A DNA stretch of 40,105 bases from Clostridia bacterium (GCA_028694075.1 JAQUUD010000001.1:1-40105); one strand, 5' to 3'. Numbered from the stretch's first letter, positions 2,676 to 26,216 are shown. The notes: generated by a model from the letters alone, not told the origin. Translations and numbers: made by a program.

Positions 2676-2700
2676 GCACTTTTGTGCTTTGTTTTTTAGT

Positions 2701-3066
2701 TATCAGTTAGTCTGTAAGCCGAGTTCTGTATTAAATGGTCATCTATCTAGATGATATATCTCTATATCATTCAAGCGGTATTTTTGGATAACGCGAGAGA
2801 ACAAGCGCATATGTTATCACTTAACCTTGCTTCAAGTGGGGTTTACATGGCACATCTTGTTACCAAGATGTCGGTGGTCTCTTACACCGCCTTTTCACCA
2901 TCACCGCAATTTTAAAAATAAATTTAATTTCACGGCAGTATATTTCTGTTGCACTTTCCTTAGAGTTGCCTCCACCGGCAGTTAACCGGCACCCAGTTCT
3001 CTTAAAGCTCGGACTTTCCTCGGAACTGTCATTATAACAATCCCGCGACCATCTGGCTAGCTGACA
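2701..3066 (-). ncRNA. rnpB: RNase P RNA, bacterial class A
   Basis: The minus strand contains GAGGAAAGUCCGAGC (reverse complement of 3007..3021). It also contains GGAAAGUGCAACAGAAAUAUACUGCCG, GGUGUAAGAGACCACC, GUAAACCCCACUUGAAGCAAGG and ACAGAACUCGGCUUACAG. A P1-like pairing joins 3057..3066 and 2701..2710. The layout parallels E. coli M1 RNA. Confidence 0.93.
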
Positions 3067-3100: not shown

Positions 3101-3146
3101 GATTAAAATATTTCAAGAACAACTGTTTTAATTACAAGATTGTTAC

Positions 3147-3730
3147 CGCGGACCAGCCAAACGAACAAAGCGAGCGGGCGTTAGCAGAGCGAGCGGGCGT
3201 TAGCAGGGCGAGCGGTCAGTTCCAGCCAAACGGACAAAGCGAGCGGGCGTTAGCAGGGCGAGCGGGCAGTTCCAGCCAAACGGACAAAGCGAGCGGGCGT
3301 TAGCAGAGCAAGCGGGCGTTAGCAGAGCGAGCGGTCAGTTCCAGCCAAACGAACAAAGCGAGCGGGCGTTAGCAGGGCGAGCGGGCGTTAGCAGGGCGAG
3401 CGGGCGTTAGCAGGGCGAGCGGGCAGTTCCAGCCAAACGGACAAAGCGAGCGGGCGTTAGCAGGGCGAGCGGGCGTTAGCAAAGCAAGCGGACAAGTCAA
3501 CCAAACGGACAAAGCGAGCGGGCGTTAGCAGAGCAAGCGGGCGTTAGCAGGGCGAGCGGTCAGTTCCAGCCAAACGGACAAAGCGAGCGGGCGTTAGCAA
3601 AGCAAGCGGACAAGCCAACCAAACGGGCAAAGCGAGCGGGCGAAGCGAAGCAAGCAGGGCGAGCGTCAAGCCAGTCAAACGGACAGAGCGAGCGGACAAA
3701 TCAACAGTCAAACGGGCTGGTCAAACAGGC
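3147..3730. repeat. GC-rich hierarchical tandem-repeat array A
   Basis: About 9-10 super-units. Each has a 22-nt punctuation (cagttccagccaaacggacaaa), then 1-3 copies of the 19-nt unit gcgagcgggcgttagcagg, then a 9-nt partial unit. The + strand is G-rich and T-poor. The array degenerates toward its right end. Confidence 0.9.
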
Positions 3731-4323: not shown

Positions 4324-4397
4324 TGGCAGGGATGGAAGGAATCGAACCCTCAAAGCTGGTTTTGGAGACCAGAGCTATACCATTTAACTACATCCCT
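4324..4397 (-). tRNA. trnW: tRNA-Trp (anticodon CCA) with encoded 3' CCA
   Basis: The minus strand reads AGGGATGTAGTTAAATGGTATAGCTCTGGTCTCCAAAACCAGCTTTGAGGGTTCGATTCCTTCCATCCCTGCCA. The acceptor stem is AGGGATG/CATCCCT, the anticodon stem is CTGGT/ACCAG, the loop is CTCCAAA, and the T-loop is GGTTCGATTCC. Confidence 0.93.
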
Positions 4398-4925: not shown

Positions 4926-5951
4926 TTAATCATTTTTAAATGGTCGTCCGTTTTTTAATTTTTTTATTGTTTTATTATTTTTATTTTGCATTTCTTGATT
5001 TTGATTATCACTTTTAATTTTCTTTAATTTTTTTGGTTTTAATTTTTTTACAAAAACATTATCTAATCGCTCATCGAAAGTTGAATGATTTCTTTGCAAA
5101 ATTTGTGGATTTTTATTAATATCTCTTTTTGGTAGAGGTGATGCATCATACTGCACTTTTGGTCTATGCTCAGAATAAACAATCAAACTGTTTGTTGCAA
5201 TTTCAATTTCATTGCGTTTTAATTCATTAAACAAAACTTCTTGCATATCAATTTCGGCTTTATCGCAATATTCTGACACTGTCCACGCTCTTACTTCAAC
5301 ATTAATTTTATTATCATTTATTTCTTTAATAAATAAATTTGGTTCTGGGTTGGTTAAAATTTTTTCATTTGATAAAAGTGTAGAAATTGCAATCTCTCTT
5401 AATTTTTTGATATCAGTATTAAGAGTTACGCTGAATTTAATTGAAAAACGGCGTATTTCGTGATAATCCGAGTTTTCAATTTGAAAGTTGACAACATTTT
5501 TATTAGGAATAATAACCCTTTTATTATCCCAAGTGTCAATTAAAGTATTGAAGAATTGTATTGCAACAACCTTACCAGATATTCCATTTATTGTAACTGA
5601 ATCATCTTTTTTAAACGGTTTTGTAAAAATTAGAATAATGCCGTTTGCAAGTGAAGAAAGGCTGTCTTGAAGTGCTAATCCTGCCGCCAATCCAAATGCA
5701 GCCAAAATTGCCATTAAGCCCGTAACTGGAATGCCGACATTTTGAATTAGAATTAAAACCAATCCTGTATACAAAGAAACAACGATAATTCTGAAAATAA
5801 ACTTTTTCGAAAGTTCTTCCAACTTGCTTTTGTTAAGAATTTTATAAATTATTTTTTTTAATATAAAAATTATGATATAACCGATGACAAAAATTGCCAA
5901 TAATTCTAAAATTTTCAATCCGCCATTAACAAAAAATTGTTCCCAGTTCAT
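4926..5951 (-). CDS. Mechanosensitive ion channel (MscS family)
   Basis: TM region followed by an MscS beta-domain signature (LANGIILIFTKPFKKDDSVTINGISGKVVAIQFFNTLIDTWDNKRVIIPN). The start is taken at MNWEQF (ATG 5951, aaaggat upstream). The ORF could extend to 5978. Confidence 0.85.
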   Translation of the reverse strand: MNWEQFFVNGGLKILELLAIFVIGYIIIFILKKIIYKILNKSKLEELSKKFIFRIIVVSLYTGLVLILIQNVGIPVTGLMAILAAFGLAAGLALQDSLSSLANGIILIFTKPFKKDDSVTINGISGKVVAIQFFNTLIDTWDNKRVIIPNKNVVNFQIENSDYHEIRRFSIKFSVTLNTDIKKLREIAISTLLSNEKILTNPEPNLFIKEINDNKINVEVRAWTVSEYCDKAEIDMQEVLFNELKRNEIEIATNSLIVYSEHRPKVQYDASPLPKRDINKNPQILQRNHSTFDERLDNVFVKKLKPKKLKKIKSDNQNQEMQNKNNKTIKKLKNGRPFKND

Positions 5952-6111
5952 ATTTAATCCTTTAATTAAGATTATCACGCATTTAGTATTATTTTGTCAA
6001 GTTATTTGCTTTAAAATATATTTTTTGTTTATTTTAATATAAATTTCAAGATTTAGGTGTCTTTTTATTGTTTGTCAATTTATTATAATTTTAGCAGTGC
6101 CCGCTAATTAA

Positions 6112-6218
6112 CCGGCGAAGCCGGCGGGCGTTTGCCGTGCAAACGCCCGTGCGATATGCTTGGGGCAAGCCCCAAGCATATCGCCAAATCGCTTTCAGCG
6201 ATTTTTCGGCTTCGCCGG
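6112..6218. repeat. Nested perfect palindrome: 12-bp closing stem enclosing three hairpins
   Basis: Closing stem ccggcgaagccg (6112..6123) pairs with cggcttcgccgg (6207..6218). Arms are cgggcgtttgc-cgt-gcaaacgcccg, gcgatatgcttgggg-caa(g)-ccccaagcatatcgc and aaatcgct-ttc-agcgattt. Confidence 0.85.
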
Positions 6219-6470
6219 AGTTTCTTTAAAATACTCTCTTTGTTTAACAATTATTTATAAAATTCGGTTAGTAAATTTTGTAAATATTTTTTACACTAAA
6301 TCCCTCAGCATAATTCAATAAACTTTCAAACCACAACTATGCCTTATTAATAACAACTTTTTCCGATCACTCTCTTTGTTTAAAAAATTAATTAACAACA
6401 TTTAATATTTTCAAATTAAACTTGTTTATCGATTTTTTGCAAATTAATTTGTCAAACAAACAAACACAAA

Positions 6471-7892
6471 TCACAACCTAAGCGGAGCCTCCCCGCATAC
6501 ATTTTGTTCGCACTTGTTATAATACATATAAGCAACTTTATCGCCTCGTGTATTTTTTAAAATTTTTGCAAATATTTCTTTTGCCTGATGACATTTTCCC
6601 AAATTAAAATATCGCACTGCCTGTTCAAACTGAGTTTTATCACTTTCCATTTTATCTCGCTTTCTCTTATCATAATATTCCAAACTTTCAAAAAGTGAAG
6701 TATATTCCTTATCATCTTCAAATGTCAATGTGCCCACATATCTATATGCCAGCGGGTAATCAATTTTTAGCGAATTTAAAGTGCGTTTTGAAAAAATTAT
6801 TTTTGAGCCGAAATACTCATTAAAATTGTTCATTTTTGAAGCAAGATTAACAGCATCAGAAATGATTGTCGGGCTTTTTCTTTCTTCTTCCCCAACAATT
6901 CCAAAAACAACTTCGCCAGTGTTTACGCTTATGCCAACTTCTAAATTTGGTAAATTTTTGGTGTTCATATTTTTATTGTCAACTGCCTTGCTTATCGCAA
7001 CCGAACATTCAAGCGCATTTTCAGGTTTAATAAAAACCGCTAAAATGCCGTCACCCAAATATTTATCCACAAAACCGTTAAACTTCCGAATAATCGGAGA
7101 TACAACATTCAAATATGAATTAATATAATTAAAATTTTCTTCCAAACTTAATGTTGTGCTTGTTGATGTGGAATGATGAATATCAACAAACATTGTTGTA
7201 ATTTCTTTTTGCACCTGATTTCCAAGTTCCAATTCAAGAATACTGCTTTTGCCTAAAAATCTCAAAAATTGTTTAGGCACATATTTTTCATATTCTAAGT
7301 TTGTCTTTTTAATTATATTTTCTTTTTCCTTAAAGTTTTCATTTATTTTATTCAATGAATTTTCAATTTCCCCAAATTGTTTACTTCCGCCAATTTGAAT
7401 GTCGCTGGCAACTCTTCCGCTACTTAATCTGCGAACAGAATCTTGCACTTTTTTCAGCGGTCTGCAAGCAAATTTAAACGATATAAACAAAATTATCAAA
7501 TATGCAATAACGGCAAGTGCCAACCAAAGATATTGATTATTATTCACTTCATTTACATTCAAAAATTCGCGGACATACTCAGACTGCGTATCCTGCATAG
7601 TATTTAAATTCAATATATAAAAACTTAAAATAGCAAAAGTTAAGGTGACTGGAATTGTTACAAAAAACAAAACTCTATTAAACGGCTGAGAAGCAAGAAA
7701 CCTGAAAAACAACACATTAAAACTTACTGCGTTCAAAATTATAAATCCAAGCCCGATATAACCCAGCAATGAAAAATTAAAACTGATGCCGTTATCCAAA
7801 ATTATGCCGTCGGAAACAGCACCGCCCAAAAGCAAACTTAGTACGGTTGAAATGATGAATAATACAATCCAAATTTTCGTGCTTGTTCTCAT
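6471..7892 (-). CDS. Membrane-bound class III adenylate/guanylate cyclase (TM region, HAMP-like linker, cyclase domain, C-terminal TPR-like tail)
   Basis: Cyclase core MFVDIHHSTS...FVDKYLGDGILAVF...VGISVNTGEVVFGIVG, with multiple N-terminal TM helices. The start is uncertain: no candidate has an SD, and the ORF is open to 7973. Confidence 0.85.
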   Translation of the reverse strand: MRTSTKIWIVLFIISTVLSLLLGGAVSDGIILDNGISFNFSLLGYIGLGFIILNAVSFNVLFFRFLASQPFNRVLFFVTIPVTLTFAILSFYILNLNTMQDTQSEYVREFLNVNEVNNNQYLWLALAVIAYLIILFISFKFACRPLKKVQDSVRRLSSGRVASDIQIGGSKQFGEIENSLNKINENFKEKENIIKKTNLEYEKYVPKQFLRFLGKSSILELELGNQVQKEITTMFVDIHHSTSTSTTLSLEENFNYINSYLNVVSPIIRKFNGFVDKYLGDGILAVFIKPENALECSVAISKAVDNKNMNTKNLPNLEVGISVNTGEVVFGIVGEEERKSPTIISDAVNLASKMNNFNEYFGSKIIFSKRTLNSLKIDYPLAYRYVGTLTFEDDKEYTSLFESLEYYDKRKRDKMESDKTQFEQAVRYFNLGKCHQAKEIFAKILKNTRGDKVAYMYYNKCEQNVCGEAPLRL

Positions 7893-7991
7893 ATCACTTA
7901 TTTTGTGCTTTTTGTTTAAAGGTATACACATTAATTTTTGACATAATTTGATAAATTTTTCACATAATAACATAGAAAAGGAAATTTTAAT

Positions 7992-8620: not shown

Positions 8621-9709
8621 TTAAATAAACTCAAATTCTTTATCTGACGTTGTTGAATAAATTGTAATGCTTCCGTCATTATTTAAACATCTATTCAAGC
8701 CCATAAGTTTTCTTAAAGTTTTCATTGTGCTGTATGCGTGAATATCTTTATGTTCACCTTTTGCAAGAAAATACATATCAAGTTCTGTGTAAATATTTTC
8801 AACATCTAAAACCACAATAACCACTTTTTGTCCAGTTCTTGCAAGCACTGTTGCGTGATTTATTGCATTATTAACCGCTTCAAATGCATATAAAGGTTCA
8901 TTTTCAAAATAACTAACAAAATCTGTAAACTTTGTTATATATTTTTGAATTTTCAACAAACCGTCAGCTGGCACTCCAACTGCAACTATAAACAAAGAGT
9001 AGCCTTTTTTTACTAATTCATTTAACACATTTGCTTTTTTTTCAATAAATTCCATTCTGCTTGGGCTATAAATGTGTGTTTTTGAGCCTTCTTTAATATT
9101 ATCAACTATTTCAACATTGTCGTTTAATACGACATCTTTTATTGAGCAAAATTTTCGGAAACAATTTTCAAATTTTTTTCCGTTTAATTTTTCAATATCC
9201 CGTGCCATAAAATAATTTTTGCCTTTAACACCTGAAGCAATAACCGACAAATAATCTCCGGAAACTAAACCAAATTGTGCAACCAGCACATCAGGCACAT
9301 ATACCAAATCATCATCTGTTGTGCAAAAATAATAATCGTGATTGTGTTTTATGAGATAACCTTGCTTGTGTTCCATTACGCTATTAATTTCATTTTCTTC
9401 ATTTTGAGCAAACGGCAAGAACCTGTCAATTAAGATAGTATCCTTATTACGTTGTTCAGCAAAATCAAGAAGTTCCTTTGGTAATAAATCTTCCTGAAAT
9501 CCTCTTGCCATAAGTTTATTTTTAATCGGACGACCGGCTTTTTGTTTCACTGCCAATTTTTTTTCGCCTGACATAATTTGTATTATTTCATTTATCAACT
9601 TTTCTTTTTTCATAATTGTGGGAGAAGGCACGCCCCACATACGTGCGATGTTTCTCAGGTCGTGAACACCTAAATTTTCCAGTTGCAATTTTCTTTCTGC
9701 TAAATCCAT
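8621..9709 (-). CDS. Rho-derived protein: Rho_N domain, Rho-like RNA-binding OB fold and a degenerate RecA-like domain
   Basis: The N-terminus LENLGVHDLRNIARMWGV...KEKLINEIIQ resembles Rho_N. GYLIKHNHDYYF...LVYVPDVLVAQFGLVSGDYLSV parallels Rho GFGFLR...DIYVSPSQIRRFNLRTGD. The positions of Walker A (GSKTHIYSPSRMEFIE) and Walker B (VIVVLDVEN) lack GKT and the acidic catalytic context. Confidence 0.7.
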   Translation of the reverse strand: MDLAERKLQLENLGVHDLRNIARMWGVPSPTIMKKEKLINEIIQIMSGEKKLAVKQKAGRPIKNKLMARGFQEDLLPKELLDFAEQRNKDTILIDRFLPFAQNEENEINSVMEHKQGYLIKHNHDYYFCTTDDDLVYVPDVLVAQFGLVSGDYLSVIASGVKGKNYFMARDIEKLNGKKFENCFRKFCSIKDVVLNDNVEIVDNIKEGSKTHIYSPSRMEFIEKKANVLNELVKKGYSLFIVAVGVPADGLLKIQKYITKFTDFVSYFENEPLYAFEAVNNAINHATVLARTGQKVVIVVLDVENIYTELDMYFLAKGEHKDIHAYSTMKTLRKLMGLNRCLNNDGSITIYSTTSDKEFEFI

Positions 9710-9956: not shown

Positions 9957-10282
9957 TGGCGAAGTCAAACAAATCAAACGGACAAGTCGAACAAGTCAAA
10001 CGGACAAAGCGAGCGGGCGAAGCGGAGCGGAGCAGGGCGAGCGGGCGAAGCGGAGCGAGCGGGCGGAGCAGGGCGAGCGGGCGAAGCGGAGCGAGCGGGC
10101 GGAGCAGGGCGAGCGGGCGAAGCGGAGCGAGCGGGCAACAGTCAAACGGACAAGTCGAACTGGTCAAACGGACAAGTCGAACTGGTCGAACGGACAAGTC
10201 GAACTGGTCGAACGGACAAGTCGAACTGGTCGAACGGACAAAGCGAGCGGACAACAAGTCAAACGGACAAGTCAAACAAAAA
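9957..10282. repeat. GC-rich tandem-repeat array B (two sub-arrays)
   Basis: Sub-array 1 has 18-nt units gcgagcgggcgaagcgga and gcgagcgggcggagcagg alternating, giving a 36-nt super-period with about 3.5 copies (10009..10136). Sub-array 2 has the 22-nt unit ggacaagtcgaactggtcgaac in about 5 copies (10146..10240). The array is flanked by GTCAAAC(A/G) motifs. The + strand is nearly T-free. Confidence 0.9.
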
Positions 10283-10386
10283 GCGGGCAGGGAAGCAAAT
10301 TTTTGACCTTCAAGTCAAAAATTTTCAGCAAAACTGATTCAAGTTTTGCTGAACAAGCCTTTAAAGGCTTGTTCTTCCCTGCCCGC
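10283..10386. repeat. Nested perfect palindrome: 13-bp closing stem enclosing three hairpins, abutting array B
   Basis: Closing stem gcgggcagggaag (10283..10295) pairs with cttccctgcccgc (10374..10386). Arms are aaatttttgac-cttcaa-gtcaaaaattt, cagcaaaact-gattca-agttttgctg and aacaagcct-ttaa-aggcttgtt. On the minus strand it is followed by TTTTTGTTTG. Confidence 0.88.
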
Positions 10387-10533
10387 AATTTAGTTGGTAA
10401 AAATCCTAAAATATTAAATTATCTTTACAATAATCAATCAAATATTAATCTTACTTCAATTTAATTATTCTCAATATACTTTTTAAATTAAAATTAAAAT
10501 TCTTTACTGAACTTTTTATAAATAAATTTTTTT

Positions 10534-10599
10534 ATAAACTAAATTTTCTTATAAACTAAATTTTCTTATAAACTAAATTTTCTTATAAACTAAATTTTC
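10534..10599. repeat. AT-rich 17-nt tandem repeat, about 3.9 copies
   Basis: The unit ataaactaaattttctt is repeated perfectly at 10534, 10551 and 10568, with a partial copy at 10585. It lies just downstream of the ypeB stop. Confidence 0.9.
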
Positions 10600-10615: not shown

Positions 10616-12175
10616 TTACATCAGTAAGTTTCCATTGTCTGTTTGAATAACTTTTAAAATATTCTCTTCTTTTCCGTTGCTTGAGTTAATATAAAAATAA
10701 TAATCATCACCGCCATATTTGCAAACAAATTCGTGACAAAGCACTTCTCTGCCGTAATCAAGAGGGATTAATGCCACTCTTTCTTGCGAAATTACATATT
10801 TCGCACCAATTTTGTTTCTTGCTGTATCAACCGACACACTGCCTTTTTGAAGACTTCTTTCAACGTGATTCATATAATATGAAGTTGCTTCATAACCCAA
10901 TACAATTCCATTATATAAATCAATTTTTAGTTTTACAAGGTCAGGATATAAAATTATATCATTTTGGACAGGTGCAAGATTAATAAAGGCATTTCCGTTT
11001 ACTGTGTCACTCCAAACAACTTTCATATTTTCAAGTTTATTCTTTTTTGCAAAGTCTAATGCAATTGCTTCAGCATTTTTTAAGGTAAGTTTTTTGCCTT
11101 TACTTCCTGACTCATTTTGATTAATGTTTTTTTCCTCAATTTCTTCTGTATCAACTTTATTCTCCACTATTTCGCTTTGTGTGGTTTCTTTGACATTTTT
11201 TTCACTTACATCAGGATCTTCTTTATTAAATTTAGTTGAATTTGTATTTTTATTTTTAAAATTTTCATAACTTTCGTTTTCTTCCTTATTTGCGTTATAA
11301 GCAGAAAGGGTCAATAAATGTCCGCCAACCTTGCTCATTTGCACAAAAGCGACTATATCTTTTTCATTTTCCTTTGCCTGAACTCTAAAATTATATGTTT
11401 GGAAATTGCCATTTGATTCATTTTCAAGTTCTACCATTTCATCGGTGTAATCACTGAAAATCTCTAGCAAAGTTGCTTTTGCTGTGCCTTCATCAACAGT
11501 GTTGCCTTTCAAGCCCTTAACTTCTTTTTTAACCTGAGAATCTGAGAACGGACCATCATAAATTAGAACCGGATATTCAACTCCTTCGGGCTTTATTGAT
11601 TTCATATCAATCGTGAAACCATTAAAATCACCATTTAGGCTATTCGATGTTTTTACAATACTATAACCATTCCACATATCTTTGGTCATTAGATTCAATG
11701 AATCTTTCATATCTAAAACGGAATCATAAATATTTTCAAGTTCTTTGATTTGGGTTGAACTTAATTTTTGCCCTTTGACCAAATTTTTACTTAAAGTTTC
11801 GGTGTAACCGCCAACTTGATTTATGAAAGCAATGCCTTCATCAAGGCCATTCATTGAATAAGGCAAATTGTTTAAATTTTCTTGTGCCATAACTGCATTT
11901 CTGCTGATTTGGTCAAGCATTTTTGCCTGATACTCTTCGTCAGTTGATGACAAGGTTTTGGCTAATTTGGTTTCAGTGTTGTTTATATTATCCACCAAAT
12001 CATAAAAATTCTTTTGATAAACATCTTCCAAATCCAGTGCAGTGTTCATTGCGTTTTGCATAGTTACTGCATAAAGAATTAATGTGATTAACAAAAGTGC
12101 ACTTAAAATCCAGACTGCAATCACCAGCGCTTTGTTATTTTTTATAATTTCTTTTGTCTTGCTTTTTTCTGCCAT
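10616..12175 (-). CDS. ypeB: Germination protein YpeB
   Basis: N-terminal TM anchor, YpeB-like middle region and C-terminal PepSY-like repeats. It lies directly downstream of sleB as in Bacillus and Clostridium. The RBS is aaaaaggagatt. Confidence 0.85.
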   Translation of the reverse strand: MAEKSKTKEIIKNNKALVIAVWILSALLLITLILYAVTMQNAMNTALDLEDVYQKNFYDLVDNINNTETKLAKTLSSTDEEYQAKMLDQISRNAVMAQENLNNLPYSMNGLDEGIAFINQVGGYTETLSKNLVKGQKLSSTQIKELENIYDSVLDMKDSLNLMTKDMWNGYSIVKTSNSLNGDFNGFTIDMKSIKPEGVEYPVLIYDGPFSDSQVKKEVKGLKGNTVDEGTAKATLLEIFSDYTDEMVELENESNGNFQTYNFRVQAKENEKDIVAFVQMSKVGGHLLTLSAYNANKEENESYENFKNKNTNSTKFNKEDPDVSEKNVKETTQSEIVENKVDTEEIEEKNINQNESGSKGKKLTLKNAEAIALDFAKKNKLENMKVVWSDTVNGNAFINLAPVQNDIILYPDLVKLKIDLYNGIVLGYEATSYYMNHVERSLQKGSVSVDTARNKIGAKYVISQERVALIPLDYGREVLCHEFVCKYGGDDYYFYINSSNGKEENILKVIQTDNGNLLM

Positions 12176-13642: not shown

Positions 13643-13743
13643 ACGGCGACTAAAAGGAAATTTTGCAAACGCAAAATTTTTCAAGATAAAATCTTGGGCT
13701 TGATTTTAAGCGTACGCTTAAAATCAAGCCTTTTAGTCGCCGT
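13643..13743. repeat. Nested perfect palindrome: 15-bp closing stem enclosing three hairpins
   Basis: Closing stem acggcgactaaaagg (13643..13657) pairs with ccttttagtcgccgt (13729..13743). Arms are aaattttgc-aaac-gcaaaattt, caagat-aaa-atcttg and the 32-nt perfect palindrome gcttgattttaagcg-ta-cgcttaaaatcaagc. Confidence 0.88.
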
Positions 13744-13929
13744 GTTCGCTTTCGTGCGATTTAATATGCTATATGTTCGTTCACTTGAAGTTAGAAAAAA
13801 TGCCAAAAGTAAATATACTTTCGACATTTTTTTAATCGTGTTTTTTGATTTTTTTTTAATAAAAACTAGATGTCTTTTATTATTAATTTATAATTACAAT
13901 TATATGTTTTTTATTAATGAATAAAATTT

Positions 13930-19242: not shown

Positions 19243-19526
19243 TAAATTCTCCTTTTTTTAAAACATTGTTTTATTTTCATAAATTCAAAATATTTATTAA
19301 ATATTCCAATTATTCTATTTTTGCTTTGATTTGTGTTTGTTCATTACTCGTTTTGTTTAAATTTATCCTACAACTTGCATATAAATATATTACTTAAATT
19401 CAACAAATTAATAAATTTTTTTAAGTTTATAATACCACAATTTCTAAAAATGTCAATAATAAAAAATTTCAAAAATTCTTCAATAAACTGAAAAAAATTT
19501 GGGTTTGTATTTATTAAATTTCAAAA

Positions 19527-19572
19527 AAACCAGCCCGCCCGCTCGCGACAAGTTAATGCACACTCGCCAATT
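19527..19572. repeat. Solo GC-rich repeat core in inverted orientation
   Basis: ccagcccgcccgctcgcgac carries the reverse complement of GCGAGCGGGCGGG. It lies upstream of a + strand gene. Confidence 0.5.
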
Positions 19573-19787
19573 CTTCTAATTTTAACTCGATCATTTTTTT
19601 AATAATGATATTTCCAATTTGTCAGTAATTAAAAATATTCAAATTGAGTAATTTATTAAATATTTTAATAATTTTCAATATTTTAGTTAACTTATAAAAT
19701 TAATTCGTATAAAATCGCTTATATTAATAATGCTAATTATATCTATATTAAATTATTTGCTAGTATAAAAAATTACTAAGCTTTCAG

Positions 19788-21409: not shown

Positions 21410-21503
21410 TTCGCCGGCAGAGGTTGGCTTTGAAAAAGCCAACGCAAACACGAAAGTGTTTGCTGGGATTTGAGATTTTCTCAAATCCCGCTCTGCCGGC
21501 GAA
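21410..21503. repeat. Nested perfect palindrome: 13-bp closing stem enclosing three hairpins
   Basis: Closing stem ttcgccggcagag (21410..21422) pairs with ctctgccggcgaa (21491..21503). Arms are gttggcttt-gaa-aaagccaac, gcaaacac-gaaa-gtgtttgc and gggatttgaga-ttt-tctcaaatccc. A T-rich tract follows on the + strand. Confidence 0.88.
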
Positions 21504-25909: not shown

Positions 25910-25958
25910 TTTTATCTCCTATTTTTTATTTGTTTTTTTATTTATTATTTTAATTTAA

Positions 25959-26216
25959 GGTCTAACGGGCAAATCAAACGGGTCAAACGGACCGAGCGAG
26001 CGGGCGAGCCAGAGTCTAACGGGCAATTCAAACGGGTCAAACGGACCGAGCGAGCGGGCGAGCCAGAGTCTAACGGGCAATTCAAACGGGTCTAACGGAC
26101 CGAGCGAGCGGGCGAGCCAGAGTCTAACGGGCAATTCAAACGGGTCTAACGGACCGAGCGAGCGGGCGAGCCAGAGTCTAACGGGCAATTCAAACGGGTC
26201 TAACGGACAAATCAAA
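25959..26216. repeat. GC-rich tandem-repeat array C (54-nt period, about 4.5 copies)
   Basis: The unit gtctaacgggcaattcaaacgggtc(t/a)aacggaccgagcgagcgggcgagccaga has ACCGAG phase markers at 25991, 26045, 26099 and 26153. It shares the GCGAGCGGGCG and CAAACGGG/TAACGGAC motifs with arrays A and B. Confidence 0.9.

Follow-up and report, generated by a model that had tools for sequence, protein, structure and literature searches.

What is the 107-nt palindrome that separates a gene for a cyclase-domain protein from the gene for an MscS-type mechanosensitive channel in a Clostridia bacterium, and what does it do at that boundary? We addressed this question in the whole stretch of DNA that carries the palindrome (hereafter the window, 40,105 nt), which is an entire contig of a metagenome-assembled genome (MAG) and ends inside a second element of the same kind. 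The host is an AT-rich (32% GC) spore-former, and the window encodes YpeB, SleB, SpoIIR, SipL, Tex, RNase P RNA, ClpC, HPF, RpoA and ribosomal proteins.

Results

E1 folds into a four-way junction on both strands

The palindrome, which we call E1, reads in order CCGGCGAAGCCG, GCGGGCGTTTGC-CGT-GCAAACGCCCGT, GCGATATGCTTGGGG-CAAG-CCCCAAGCATATCGC, C, AAATCGCT-TTC-AGCGATTT, TT, CGGCTTCGCCGG, with linkers of 0, 0, 1 (C) and 2 (TT) nt (Table 1). The original prediction had described a 12-bp closing stem around three hairpins of 11, 15–16 and 8 bp, which is accurate, hairpin 1 having a terminal G.T in addition to its 11 Watson-Crick pairs and hairpin 2 measuring 15 bp; the GCGGGCG core that it placed in the first arm lies in hairpin 1 at 6124-6130. 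Read from the sequence, the 5′ half of the closing stem together with the next G makes up the mini-palindrome CCGGC-GAA-GCCGG.

Folded as RNA, E1 reached −83.8 kcal/mol on the + strand and −82.8 on the − strand, with z scores of −11.1 and −11.0 and none of 200 shuffles as good, and DNA parameters returned the identical structure with a z score of −12.2. E1 forms a four-way junction that is equally stable on both strands, a closing stem around three hairpins and not the single hairpin with a short loop by which an intrinsic terminator is recognised. It shows all the features by which we define the family: it is intergenic, its closing stem is perfect and no shorter than 10 bp, it has exactly three simple hairpins, and no linker exceeds 4 nt. 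As to its orientation within the family, the + strand is favoured by the similarity of its arms to those of the L072 copy and by the T-richer tail, and the − strand by the flanking genes and by the GAA and CUUG loops.

Table 1 Features of E1, its surroundings and the other copies of the family. Positions without a prefix are those of the window; L numbers denote comparison loci.
Feature	Position	Strand	Description
E1, nested palindrome, four-way junction	6112..6218	none assigned	107 nt
E1 closing stem, 5′ half CCGGCGAAGCCG	6112-6123		pairs with CGGCTTCGCCGG, 12 bp
E1 hairpin 1, GCGGGCGTTTGC / GCAAACGCCCGT	6124-6150		11 Watson-Crick pairs and one terminal G.T, loop CGT
E1 hairpin 2, GCGATATGCTTGGGG / CCCCAAGCATATCGC	6151-6184		15 bp, loop CAAG (CUUG on the − strand)
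E1 hairpin 3, AAATCGCT / AGCGATTT	6186-6204		8 bp, loop TTC (GAA on the − strand)
E1 closing stem, 3′ half CGGCTTCGCCGG	6207-6218		pairs with CCGGCGAAGCCG
Adenylate/guanylate-cyclase-domain protein gene	6471..7973	−	stop 253 nt before E1
MscS-type mechanosensitive channel gene	4926..5951	−	starts 160 nt after E1; likely ATG 5951-5949 after AAAGGA
Promoter-like site for MscS, TTGACA-18-GATAAT	5971..6000	−	~110 nt downstream of E1; identical in L081
E0, paralog of E1, cut by the contig end	1..35		complete form L101:2907-3004; inverted ortholog L105:2626-2718
E2	10283..10386		13-bp closing stem GCGGGCAGGGAAG; hairpins of 11, 11 and 8 bp; followed by TTTTT on the − strand; adjoins a GC-rich tandem array
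E3	13643..13743		13–15-bp closing stem; between the convergent SpoIIR and SipL genes
E4	21410..21503		13-bp closing stem TTCGCCGGCAGAG; loops GAA, GAAA and TTT; followed by TTTTATTTT on the + strand
Copy in a relative	L001:4807-4887		
Copy in a relative	L003:2792-2882		
Copies in relatives	L010:11423-11497 and L012:11414-11488		orthologous pair
Copies in relatives	L063:11405-11518 and L068:18231-18360		orthologous pair
Copy in a relative	L068:13234-13316		
Copy in a relative	L072:7697-7800		
Copy in a relative	L076:15770-15887		
Copy in a relative	L105:2626-2718		E0 ortholog, inverted

The window carries further copies

A detector set to perfect closing stems of 9 bp or more, three or more simple hairpins and a minimum of 72% paired bases found four complete elements in the window, compared with one in total over 200 block-wise dinucleotide shuffles (~0.005 per window), and the fold z scores of the elements ranged from −9 to −14. 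One of the four, E3, had been overlooked before. The half-stem at the window start (23-35, CGGCTTCCGCCGG), to which the closing stem of E1 had been likened, matches the 3′ half of that stem save for a one-base indel; in a contig from a sister strain, whose Tex protein is 97% identical, it is seen to be part of a complete 98-nt nested palindrome (L101:2907-3004) with the closing stem CCGGCGGAAGCCG and hairpins of 9, 9 and 12 bp.

Contigs tend to end at such elements, the window inside E0 and two Logan contigs inside E3, which might raise the suspicion of an assembly artefact. Against this and against a chance palindrome stand the z scores and the single detector hit given above, and E1 is present again in an independent metagenome contig (L081), E3 in three other assemblies. 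Recurrence in independent assemblies and samples (L081, L097, L101 and L105) excludes an assembly artefact, and the probability that chance or assembly produced the element is negligible. At E3, two independent Logan assemblies stop at the identical base inside a 17-bp perfect palindrome (L098:2634-2717, L099:1089-1172, L100:1-94), and another contig stops at the edge of a GC-rich array. In practical terms, the palindromic elements systematically fragment short-read assemblies, the window contig included, which probably breaks at a palindrome or at an rRNA repeat.

Related Clostridia carry the family with exactly three inner hairpins

Loci of relatives were collected through the cyclase gene (80 loci from uncultured gut Clostridia, Christensenellales-like MAGs, and 16 metagenome loci), homologs of SpoIIR, HPF and Tex gave further comparison loci, and the related loci (~1.5 Mb) were searched with seed-based scans. 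They hold ~10 further copies, every one with exactly three inner hairpins, and no convincing variant with two or four hairpins was found in the ~1.5 Mb. The original prediction had named absence from all relatives, with no sign of mobility or transcription, as an outcome that would count against it, and related genomes carry the family. Its members measure 75–130 nt and combine a GC-rich closing stem of 10–16 bp with three perfect hairpins and linkers of 0–2 nt. They occur at ~1 per 8 kb in the window genome, compared with ~1 per 100 kb or more in relatives and none in 22 kb of L103. The number of hairpins at sites is bimodal, either one or three, and the constant presence of three inner hairpins suggests that a specific junction is required, more than extra hairpins.

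Searches of Rfam 15 gave no match for the elements at the gathering threshold, and at E ≤ 5 they returned sub-threshold chance matches only, such as Pseudomon-groES at 27.6 bits against a threshold of 50. In the window, only an RNase P RNA (bacterial class A, 2699-3064, − strand, 257.9 bits), which has a perfect TTGACA-16-TATAAT promoter at 3100-3073, and a tRNA pass. This is tRNA-Trp(CCA) at 4324-4397 (−), the only tRNA that ARAGORN found in the window and the only gene matched by RF00005; ARAGORN saw no tRNA-like gene at the elements. In the literature we found no description of closed multi-hairpin, branched, cloverleaf or junction terminators, of nested palindromic repeats in bacteria or of repeats with a four-way junction in Clostridia. 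E1 is one copy of a conserved and apparently undescribed family of cloverleaf palindromes.

Copies share words in their stems and fall into subtypes

Among the closing stems of 12 independent elements, words of at least 6 nt are common to 15 pairs against 2.5 expected, a number that none of 2000 shuffles reached, and words of at least 7 nt to 6 pairs against 0.5 expected. These words do not reduce to one consensus such as the CCGGCG/GCCGGC first proposed, since at least two stem types, CCGGCG(G)AAGCCG and GCGGGCA(GG)GAAG, stand beside outliers. The accompanying proposal was that closing stems may be the conserved part, used for recognition, while the arms vary. The stems do share words beyond chance; the arms are not free to vary, E0 being ~88% identical between species and several paralogs having hairpin sequences in common.

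Because MAFFT mis-registers unrelated stems, arms were compared one by one against arm shuffles. A core cluster comprising E2(−), E3(−), L001, L063, L068b and L072 emerged with z scores of 4–7, its motifs being a closing stem like GCGGGCAGGGAAG, a first hairpin like GCAAGCC-GAA and a third like AAATTTTGAC. The L001 copy lies at the E3 site yet resembles E2 in all four stems, implying that copies have moved or been converted between sites. E0 and E1 make up a second subtype, with the closing stem CCGGCG(G)AAGCCG, each half of which is the mini-palindrome CCGGC-GAA-GCCGG, a first hairpin that begins GCGGG and no linker before the hairpin; judged by sequence, the two are co-linear paralogs. A blastn-short comparison between elements recovered orthologs only, with no cross-matches among the window copies; the similarity within the family lies in blocks too short for BLAST. 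No target-site duplications or flanking direct repeats were found at the elements, and no transposase or RAYT-like gene was found among the window ORFs scanned with Pfam.

Elements are better conserved than their flanks and tolerate inversion

Between the window and L081, whose cyclase is 99% identical, E1 shows 1 change in 107 nt compared with 19 in 244 nt of the adjacent spacers (Fisher p = 0.006), and 44 changes in 124 nt are seen further upstream; the sole change in E1 falls within a linker and makes the closing stem longer. The orthologous copies of L010 and L012 differ in one loop base. L063 and L068b have the closing stem GGGCGGGCAT in common; compensatory substitutions and a paired indel preserve their first two hairpins, and their flanks are unalignable. 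E0 is kept downstream of Tex in another species (Tex 88% identical) at ~88% identity, and its flanks there are unalignable (~54% identical). Its interior in that ortholog (L105) is wholly inverted relative to L101, with an alignment score of 67.5 flipped versus 25 direct, and at the apex of one E0 hairpin the difference between the window and L101 resembles a loop flip. These comparisons indicate that the elements are under purifying selection and vertically inherited, with compensatory changes.

G.U pairs account for ~1% of pairs in the elements versus 8.4% in the simple terminator-like hairpins of the same loci, 38% of which are perfect, and both strands of the elements fold equally well. 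Selection acting on a single RNA strand would not by itself predict so low a G.U content. The A-richness of loops was considered as a mark of the sense strand and dropped, as it depends on the orientation assigned (GAA versus TTC loops ~7 to 2, p ~0.09).

Elements lie at transcription-unit boundaries

E1 is the first stable structure downstream of the cyclase stop on the − strand, and between that stop and E1 this strand holds no other GC-rich hairpin and no promoter-like site. With the MscS promoter-like site beyond it, E1 occupies the 3′-UTR or insulator position that had been proposed. Its tail is TTAATTAG on the − strand, with 4 T in 8 nt, and AGTTTCTT on the + strand, with 5 in 8. A T-rich tail, in which T makes up at least 5 of the first 8 nt on one side or both, accompanies 10 of 12 elements against a background of 14% per side, and six of the 12 have at least 6 T in 8; L063, L068b and L076 are without a U-tract on the sense strand. 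The cyclase–E1 spacer also contains a 15-nt direct repeat, ACTCTCTTTGTTTAA, at 6235-6250 and 6368-6383, ~133 nt apart, of which the copy adjoining E1 is identical in L081 and the distal copy has diverged there.

Copies in relatives start 0–36 nt past a stop codon, and between convergent genes they frequently take up the entire spacer (L001, L003, L010/L012, L076). At three orthologous sites, a nested element lies where a relative has an ordinary terminator hairpin. The site after the cyclase gene is nested in L010/L012 and a simple hairpin in L007, L009 and L082; the site after a methyltransferase gene is nested in L063/L068 and simple in L069; and after YpeB the window has the nested E2, where the terminator of L001 is simple, contains G.U pairs and carries a T-run; the 5′ arm of that terminator, GCAGGGAAGAA, is identical to the closing-stem arm of E2. 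Between the YpeB stop and E2 the window has an AT-rich 17-nt tandem repeat (TTATAAACTAAATTTTC, five copies, 97% matches, 10516-10599), which is absent from L001, where the terminator comes 34 nt past the stop.

At four sites a nested element stands beside an ordinary terminator: E3 with the SipL terminator, L072, E0 in L105, 17 nt past the Tex terminator, and E0 in the window, past a hairpin at ~178-220. The SipL terminator hairpin (~13794-13834, − strand) uses G.U pairs, and the Tex terminator hairpin (178-220) is bidirectional with A- and T-runs. The genome therefore uses canonical terminators too. A perfect consensus promoter, TTGACA-16-TATAAT at 142-115 on the − strand of the window (TTGACC-16-TATAAT in L101), reads towards E0 and the rRNA operon, with its −35 hexamer inside a mini GC-rich array, and E0 follows ~75–95 nt downstream of it. 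In the sister strain the 16S rRNA gene lies ~640 nt beyond E0 (L101:2907-4547), behind a second promoter-like site, TTGACA-17-TATATT. The promoter at 115-142 could be an rrn P1 promoter or could drive a short transcript that ends at E0.

Discussion

A proposed two-way branched terminator or insulator

Taking position, conservation and fold together, we tentatively favour the reading that the family is an orientation-independent branched terminator or insulator giving a very stable transcript end, at a probability of roughly 0.45; that the elements punctuate transcription-unit boundaries in a clade of uncultured, spore-forming gut Clostridia likewise falls a little short of an even chance. As RNA polymerase leaves the gene, the three inner hairpins would fold first and bring the halves of the closing stem together, and the GC-rich closing stem would zip up behind the polymerase as an intrinsic-terminator stem with a pre-organised 'loop'. 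The outcome would be termination, or at least a strong pause, together with a very stable, exonuclease-resistant 3′ end. At E1, transcription running on from the cyclase gene would in this way be halted ahead of the MscS promoter, as would any antisense transcription from the other side. Since all stems are Watson-Crick palindromes, the transcript of either strand would adopt the same structure, so that the element would work both ways and survive inversion. The stems are probably kept perfect in part by selection and in part by a mutational process, in which template switching would correct quasi-palindromes and the interior would flip-flop; the idea draws on quasipalindrome mutagenesis, which is well established.

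The terminator reading accounts for where the elements lie, for the simple terminators found in their place in relatives, for the T-rich tails and for purifying selection, and the symmetry of the structure explains why inversion is tolerated. It is supported by the three orthologous comparisons in which a nested element takes the spot of an ordinary terminator and, at E1, by the absence of anything else hairpin- or promoter-like between the cyclase stop and the element, with a good MscS promoter beyond. In the literature the closest idea is that several adjacent hairpins terminate transcription as a cluster, and such clusters 3′ of stop codons, proposed and matched with RNA-seq as termination units (PMC8355165), also speak for it. 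Against it, E1 is without a proper U-tract on the sense (−) strand (TTAATTAG) and lies 253 nt from the stop codon, the three copies in relatives named above are likewise without one, and four elements accompany a normal simple terminator instead of replacing one. The terminator reading leaves unexplained the fixed number of three hairpins, the avoidance of G.U pairs, the copies without a U-tract, the E1 sense strand included, and the copies beside normal terminators, and for these features a DNA-level four-way junction, a BIME-like boundary element, is kept as its main rival.

According to that rival, which is possible though unlikely, the palindromes act as DNA, forming cruciforms or four-way junctions through transcription supercoiling or in the single-stranded DNA of replication, where they would be bound by a junction- or structure-specific protein or absorb torsional stress. 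Stems that are perfect in Watson-Crick terms on both strands and nearly free of G.U speak for it, as do exactly three hairpins with minimal linkers, which make a clean four-way junction, the inverted interior of L105 relative to L101 and the flip-like apex, which imply that orientation is irrelevant, and the ordinary terminators alongside at four sites. The setting also fits, with GC-rich palindromes in AT-rich flanks before strong promoters, including upstream of the 16S rRNA gene, and GNA-type triloops (GAA, GCA), known stabilisers of DNA mini-hairpins, are frequent in the elements. E. coli BIMEs bind gyrase and IHF, and a similar role has been proposed for them. Perfect symmetry, however, is equally expected of a bidirectional RNA element, use at the RNA level is suggested by the T-rich tails and by the way nested elements stand exactly where simple terminators do in relatives, the arms of the closing stem are 70–100 bp apart and hard to extrude from a duplex, so that the inner hairpins only could do so, and a candidate binding protein was not identified. 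A bolder proposal, and an unlikely one, is orientation-independent genome punctuation in which the junction, as DNA or RNA, is read by a dedicated structure-specific factor, insulating neighbouring units that include the approach to the rRNA operon, with palindromy kept by flip-flop inversion and template-switch correction; under that proposal the elements may be functionally coupled to the GC-rich tandem arrays through their common GCGGGC core.

A role in RNA processing and the spread of a selfish repeat are both less likely than the terminator or the DNA-level reading. As a structured RNA, the element would be a processing substrate or a platform for binding, with RNase III acting on coaxial helices of ~20–24 bp as one example, or else it would serve as tRNA-like punctuation or form a small RNA. 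In favour of such a role, the closing stem and the adjacent hairpin usually sum to ~17–30 bp, E0, downstream of a conserved promoter and upstream of the 16S rRNA gene, may belong to a leader or to some short transcript, and the stable loops GAAA, GAA and CUUG lie on the sense strand of several copies; we consider it improbable, as the Rfam and ARAGORN searches were negative (no match at the gathering score and none credible at E ≤ 5), the sequence upstream of E1 is without a promoter-like site, orientation flips between species and the summed helix lengths vary. A mobile palindromic repeat of MITE- or REP-like kind, selfish or decaying, with the closing stem as its terminal inverted repeats, would tend to insert at or close to terminators and would do nothing for the host. 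Similar members at non-orthologous sites, such as the E2-like L001 copy at the E3 site, closing-stem words shared beyond chance, the variable copy density (~1 per 8 kb in the window, none in 22 kb of L103) and a hairpin number of one or three, suggesting that the unit is gained or lost whole, all lend themselves to that explanation. It is nevertheless quite improbable: target-site duplications were not found, the window is without a transposase or RAYT-like gene, copies within one genome are mostly dissimilar, and orthologs that are kept across species with compensatory changes, and far better conserved than their flanks, are not products of neutral decay.

Comparison with known elements

The family lacks a defining feature of each of the classes that it most recalls, namely intrinsic terminators, REP/BIME elements, MITEs and parvoviral ITRs. 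Like intrinsic terminators, it lies at the ends of transcription units, has a GC-rich stem often followed by a T-run, builds site-specific sequences on a common architecture and is interchangeable with simple hairpins at orthologous sites; unlike them, it closes into a four-way junction around exactly three inner hairpins, a clear U-tract is lacking in about half of the copies, among them E1 in its sense orientation, the stems are perfect on both strands and the members share sequence. REP/BIME elements of enterobacteria, for which mRNA stabilisation, termination and topology have been proposed as roles, are likewise palindrome clusters that occupy intergenic spacers, as a rule at 3′ ends or where genes converge, and the closing-stem halves of E0 and E1, small palindromic units in inverted copies, resemble the BIME layout. 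In the family, however, no high-copy conserved unit, GTAG-type motif or RAYT gene was seen, and its nested closed architecture and fixed hairpin number are not BIME features.

MITEs such as Correia/NEMIS are short, non-coding, bounded by inverted repeats and dispersed between genes, and can carry terminator-like function. The members of the family are similarly short, non-coding and intergenic, and their closing stems of 10–16 bp are perfect terminal inverted repeats, but the family shows no target-site duplications, its copies within a genome are dissimilar and its orthologs have long been kept with compensatory evolution. The closing stem around small hairpins, the GNA-type triloops and the two orientations of the interior ('flip' and 'flop') are reminiscent of the ITR of the parvovirus AAV and of the folded telomeres on linear replicons of Streptomyces. 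Such structures serve replication where a linear genome, single-stranded or duplex, ends, whereas the family is internal to a bacterial chromosome, has three inner hairpins and lies at gene boundaries. With the tRNA cloverleaf it shares the four-way junction, the short linkers and the place between transcription units; its stems are 2–3 times longer, and it has neither the conserved tRNA nucleotides nor a hit with ARAGORN or the Rfam tRNA model.

If the elements terminate or insulate, standard terminator predictors miss them, because these tools seek a single hairpin with a U-tract, and operon maps of a large uncultured group of gut Clostridia would be systematically wrong at element sites. 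The elements would then be a natural bidirectional terminator with a pre-organised loop, of interest to synthetic biology as a compact insulator. The fixed number of three hairpins, near-zero G.U content, compensatory change and inversion of whole elements also offer a clean system for separating structural selection from palindrome-specific mutation.

GC-rich tandem arrays and other repeats around the elements

The window contains GC-rich tandem arrays at 3137-3724, 9978-10269 and 25958-26207, a degenerate one at 2537-2644, a mini array at 122-173 and one in the opposite orientation at 19522-19577. They are ~60–64% GC and T-poor on the + strand, with units of 18–69 nt around the core AGCGAGCGGGCG, and one consists of a 54-nt unit repeated 4.6 times at 98% identity. 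Each array follows closely on a − strand gene or terminator, and the promoter of the next − strand unit lies shortly beyond it, the units in question being those of RNase P RNA, the gene at 8621-9709, HPF and Tex. In the transcribed (− strand) sense the arrays are C-rich and A-poor, resembling a Rho-utilisation site; on the + strand they show spaced GGG runs, and they contain AGCGG and GAAGCGG words.

The link between the elements and the GCGGGCG tandem arrays that was part of the original prediction is real at the level of words, as hairpin 1 of E1 and E0 begins GCGGG and the closing stems of E2, L063/L068b and L076 begin GCGGGCA. Pairs of GCGGGC and GCCCGC within 260 nt of each other occur, in 1.45 Mb, only as the closing stems of those last copies (E2, L063/L068b and L076). 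E2 adjoins one array, and its closing stem begins with the array core GCGGGCAG. The idea that GCGGGC is a strand-polar word of the Chi or KOPS kind was rejected, because in relatives its strand bias follows gene orientation, and in the window it shows no such bias beyond the arrays.

Immediately downstream of E2 and its array lies the gene for a conserved protein of ~360–390 aa (window 8621-9709, − strand; L001:8161-9333), whose sole Pfam match is a weak Rho_N just under the gathering cut-off and which is not a full Rho factor. Other repeats were seen at the sites in relatives: in L003 (4860-5110) a 22-nt tandem repeat, AGAGTGTTCCAAGAGCCTGCGA, follows the cyclase gene; in L105 (2719-2800) a ~25-nt tandem repeat in three copies comes directly after the E0 ortholog; and in L013/L083, at ~11480-11560, a 21-bp perfect GC-flanked hairpin is followed by GC-rich sequence.
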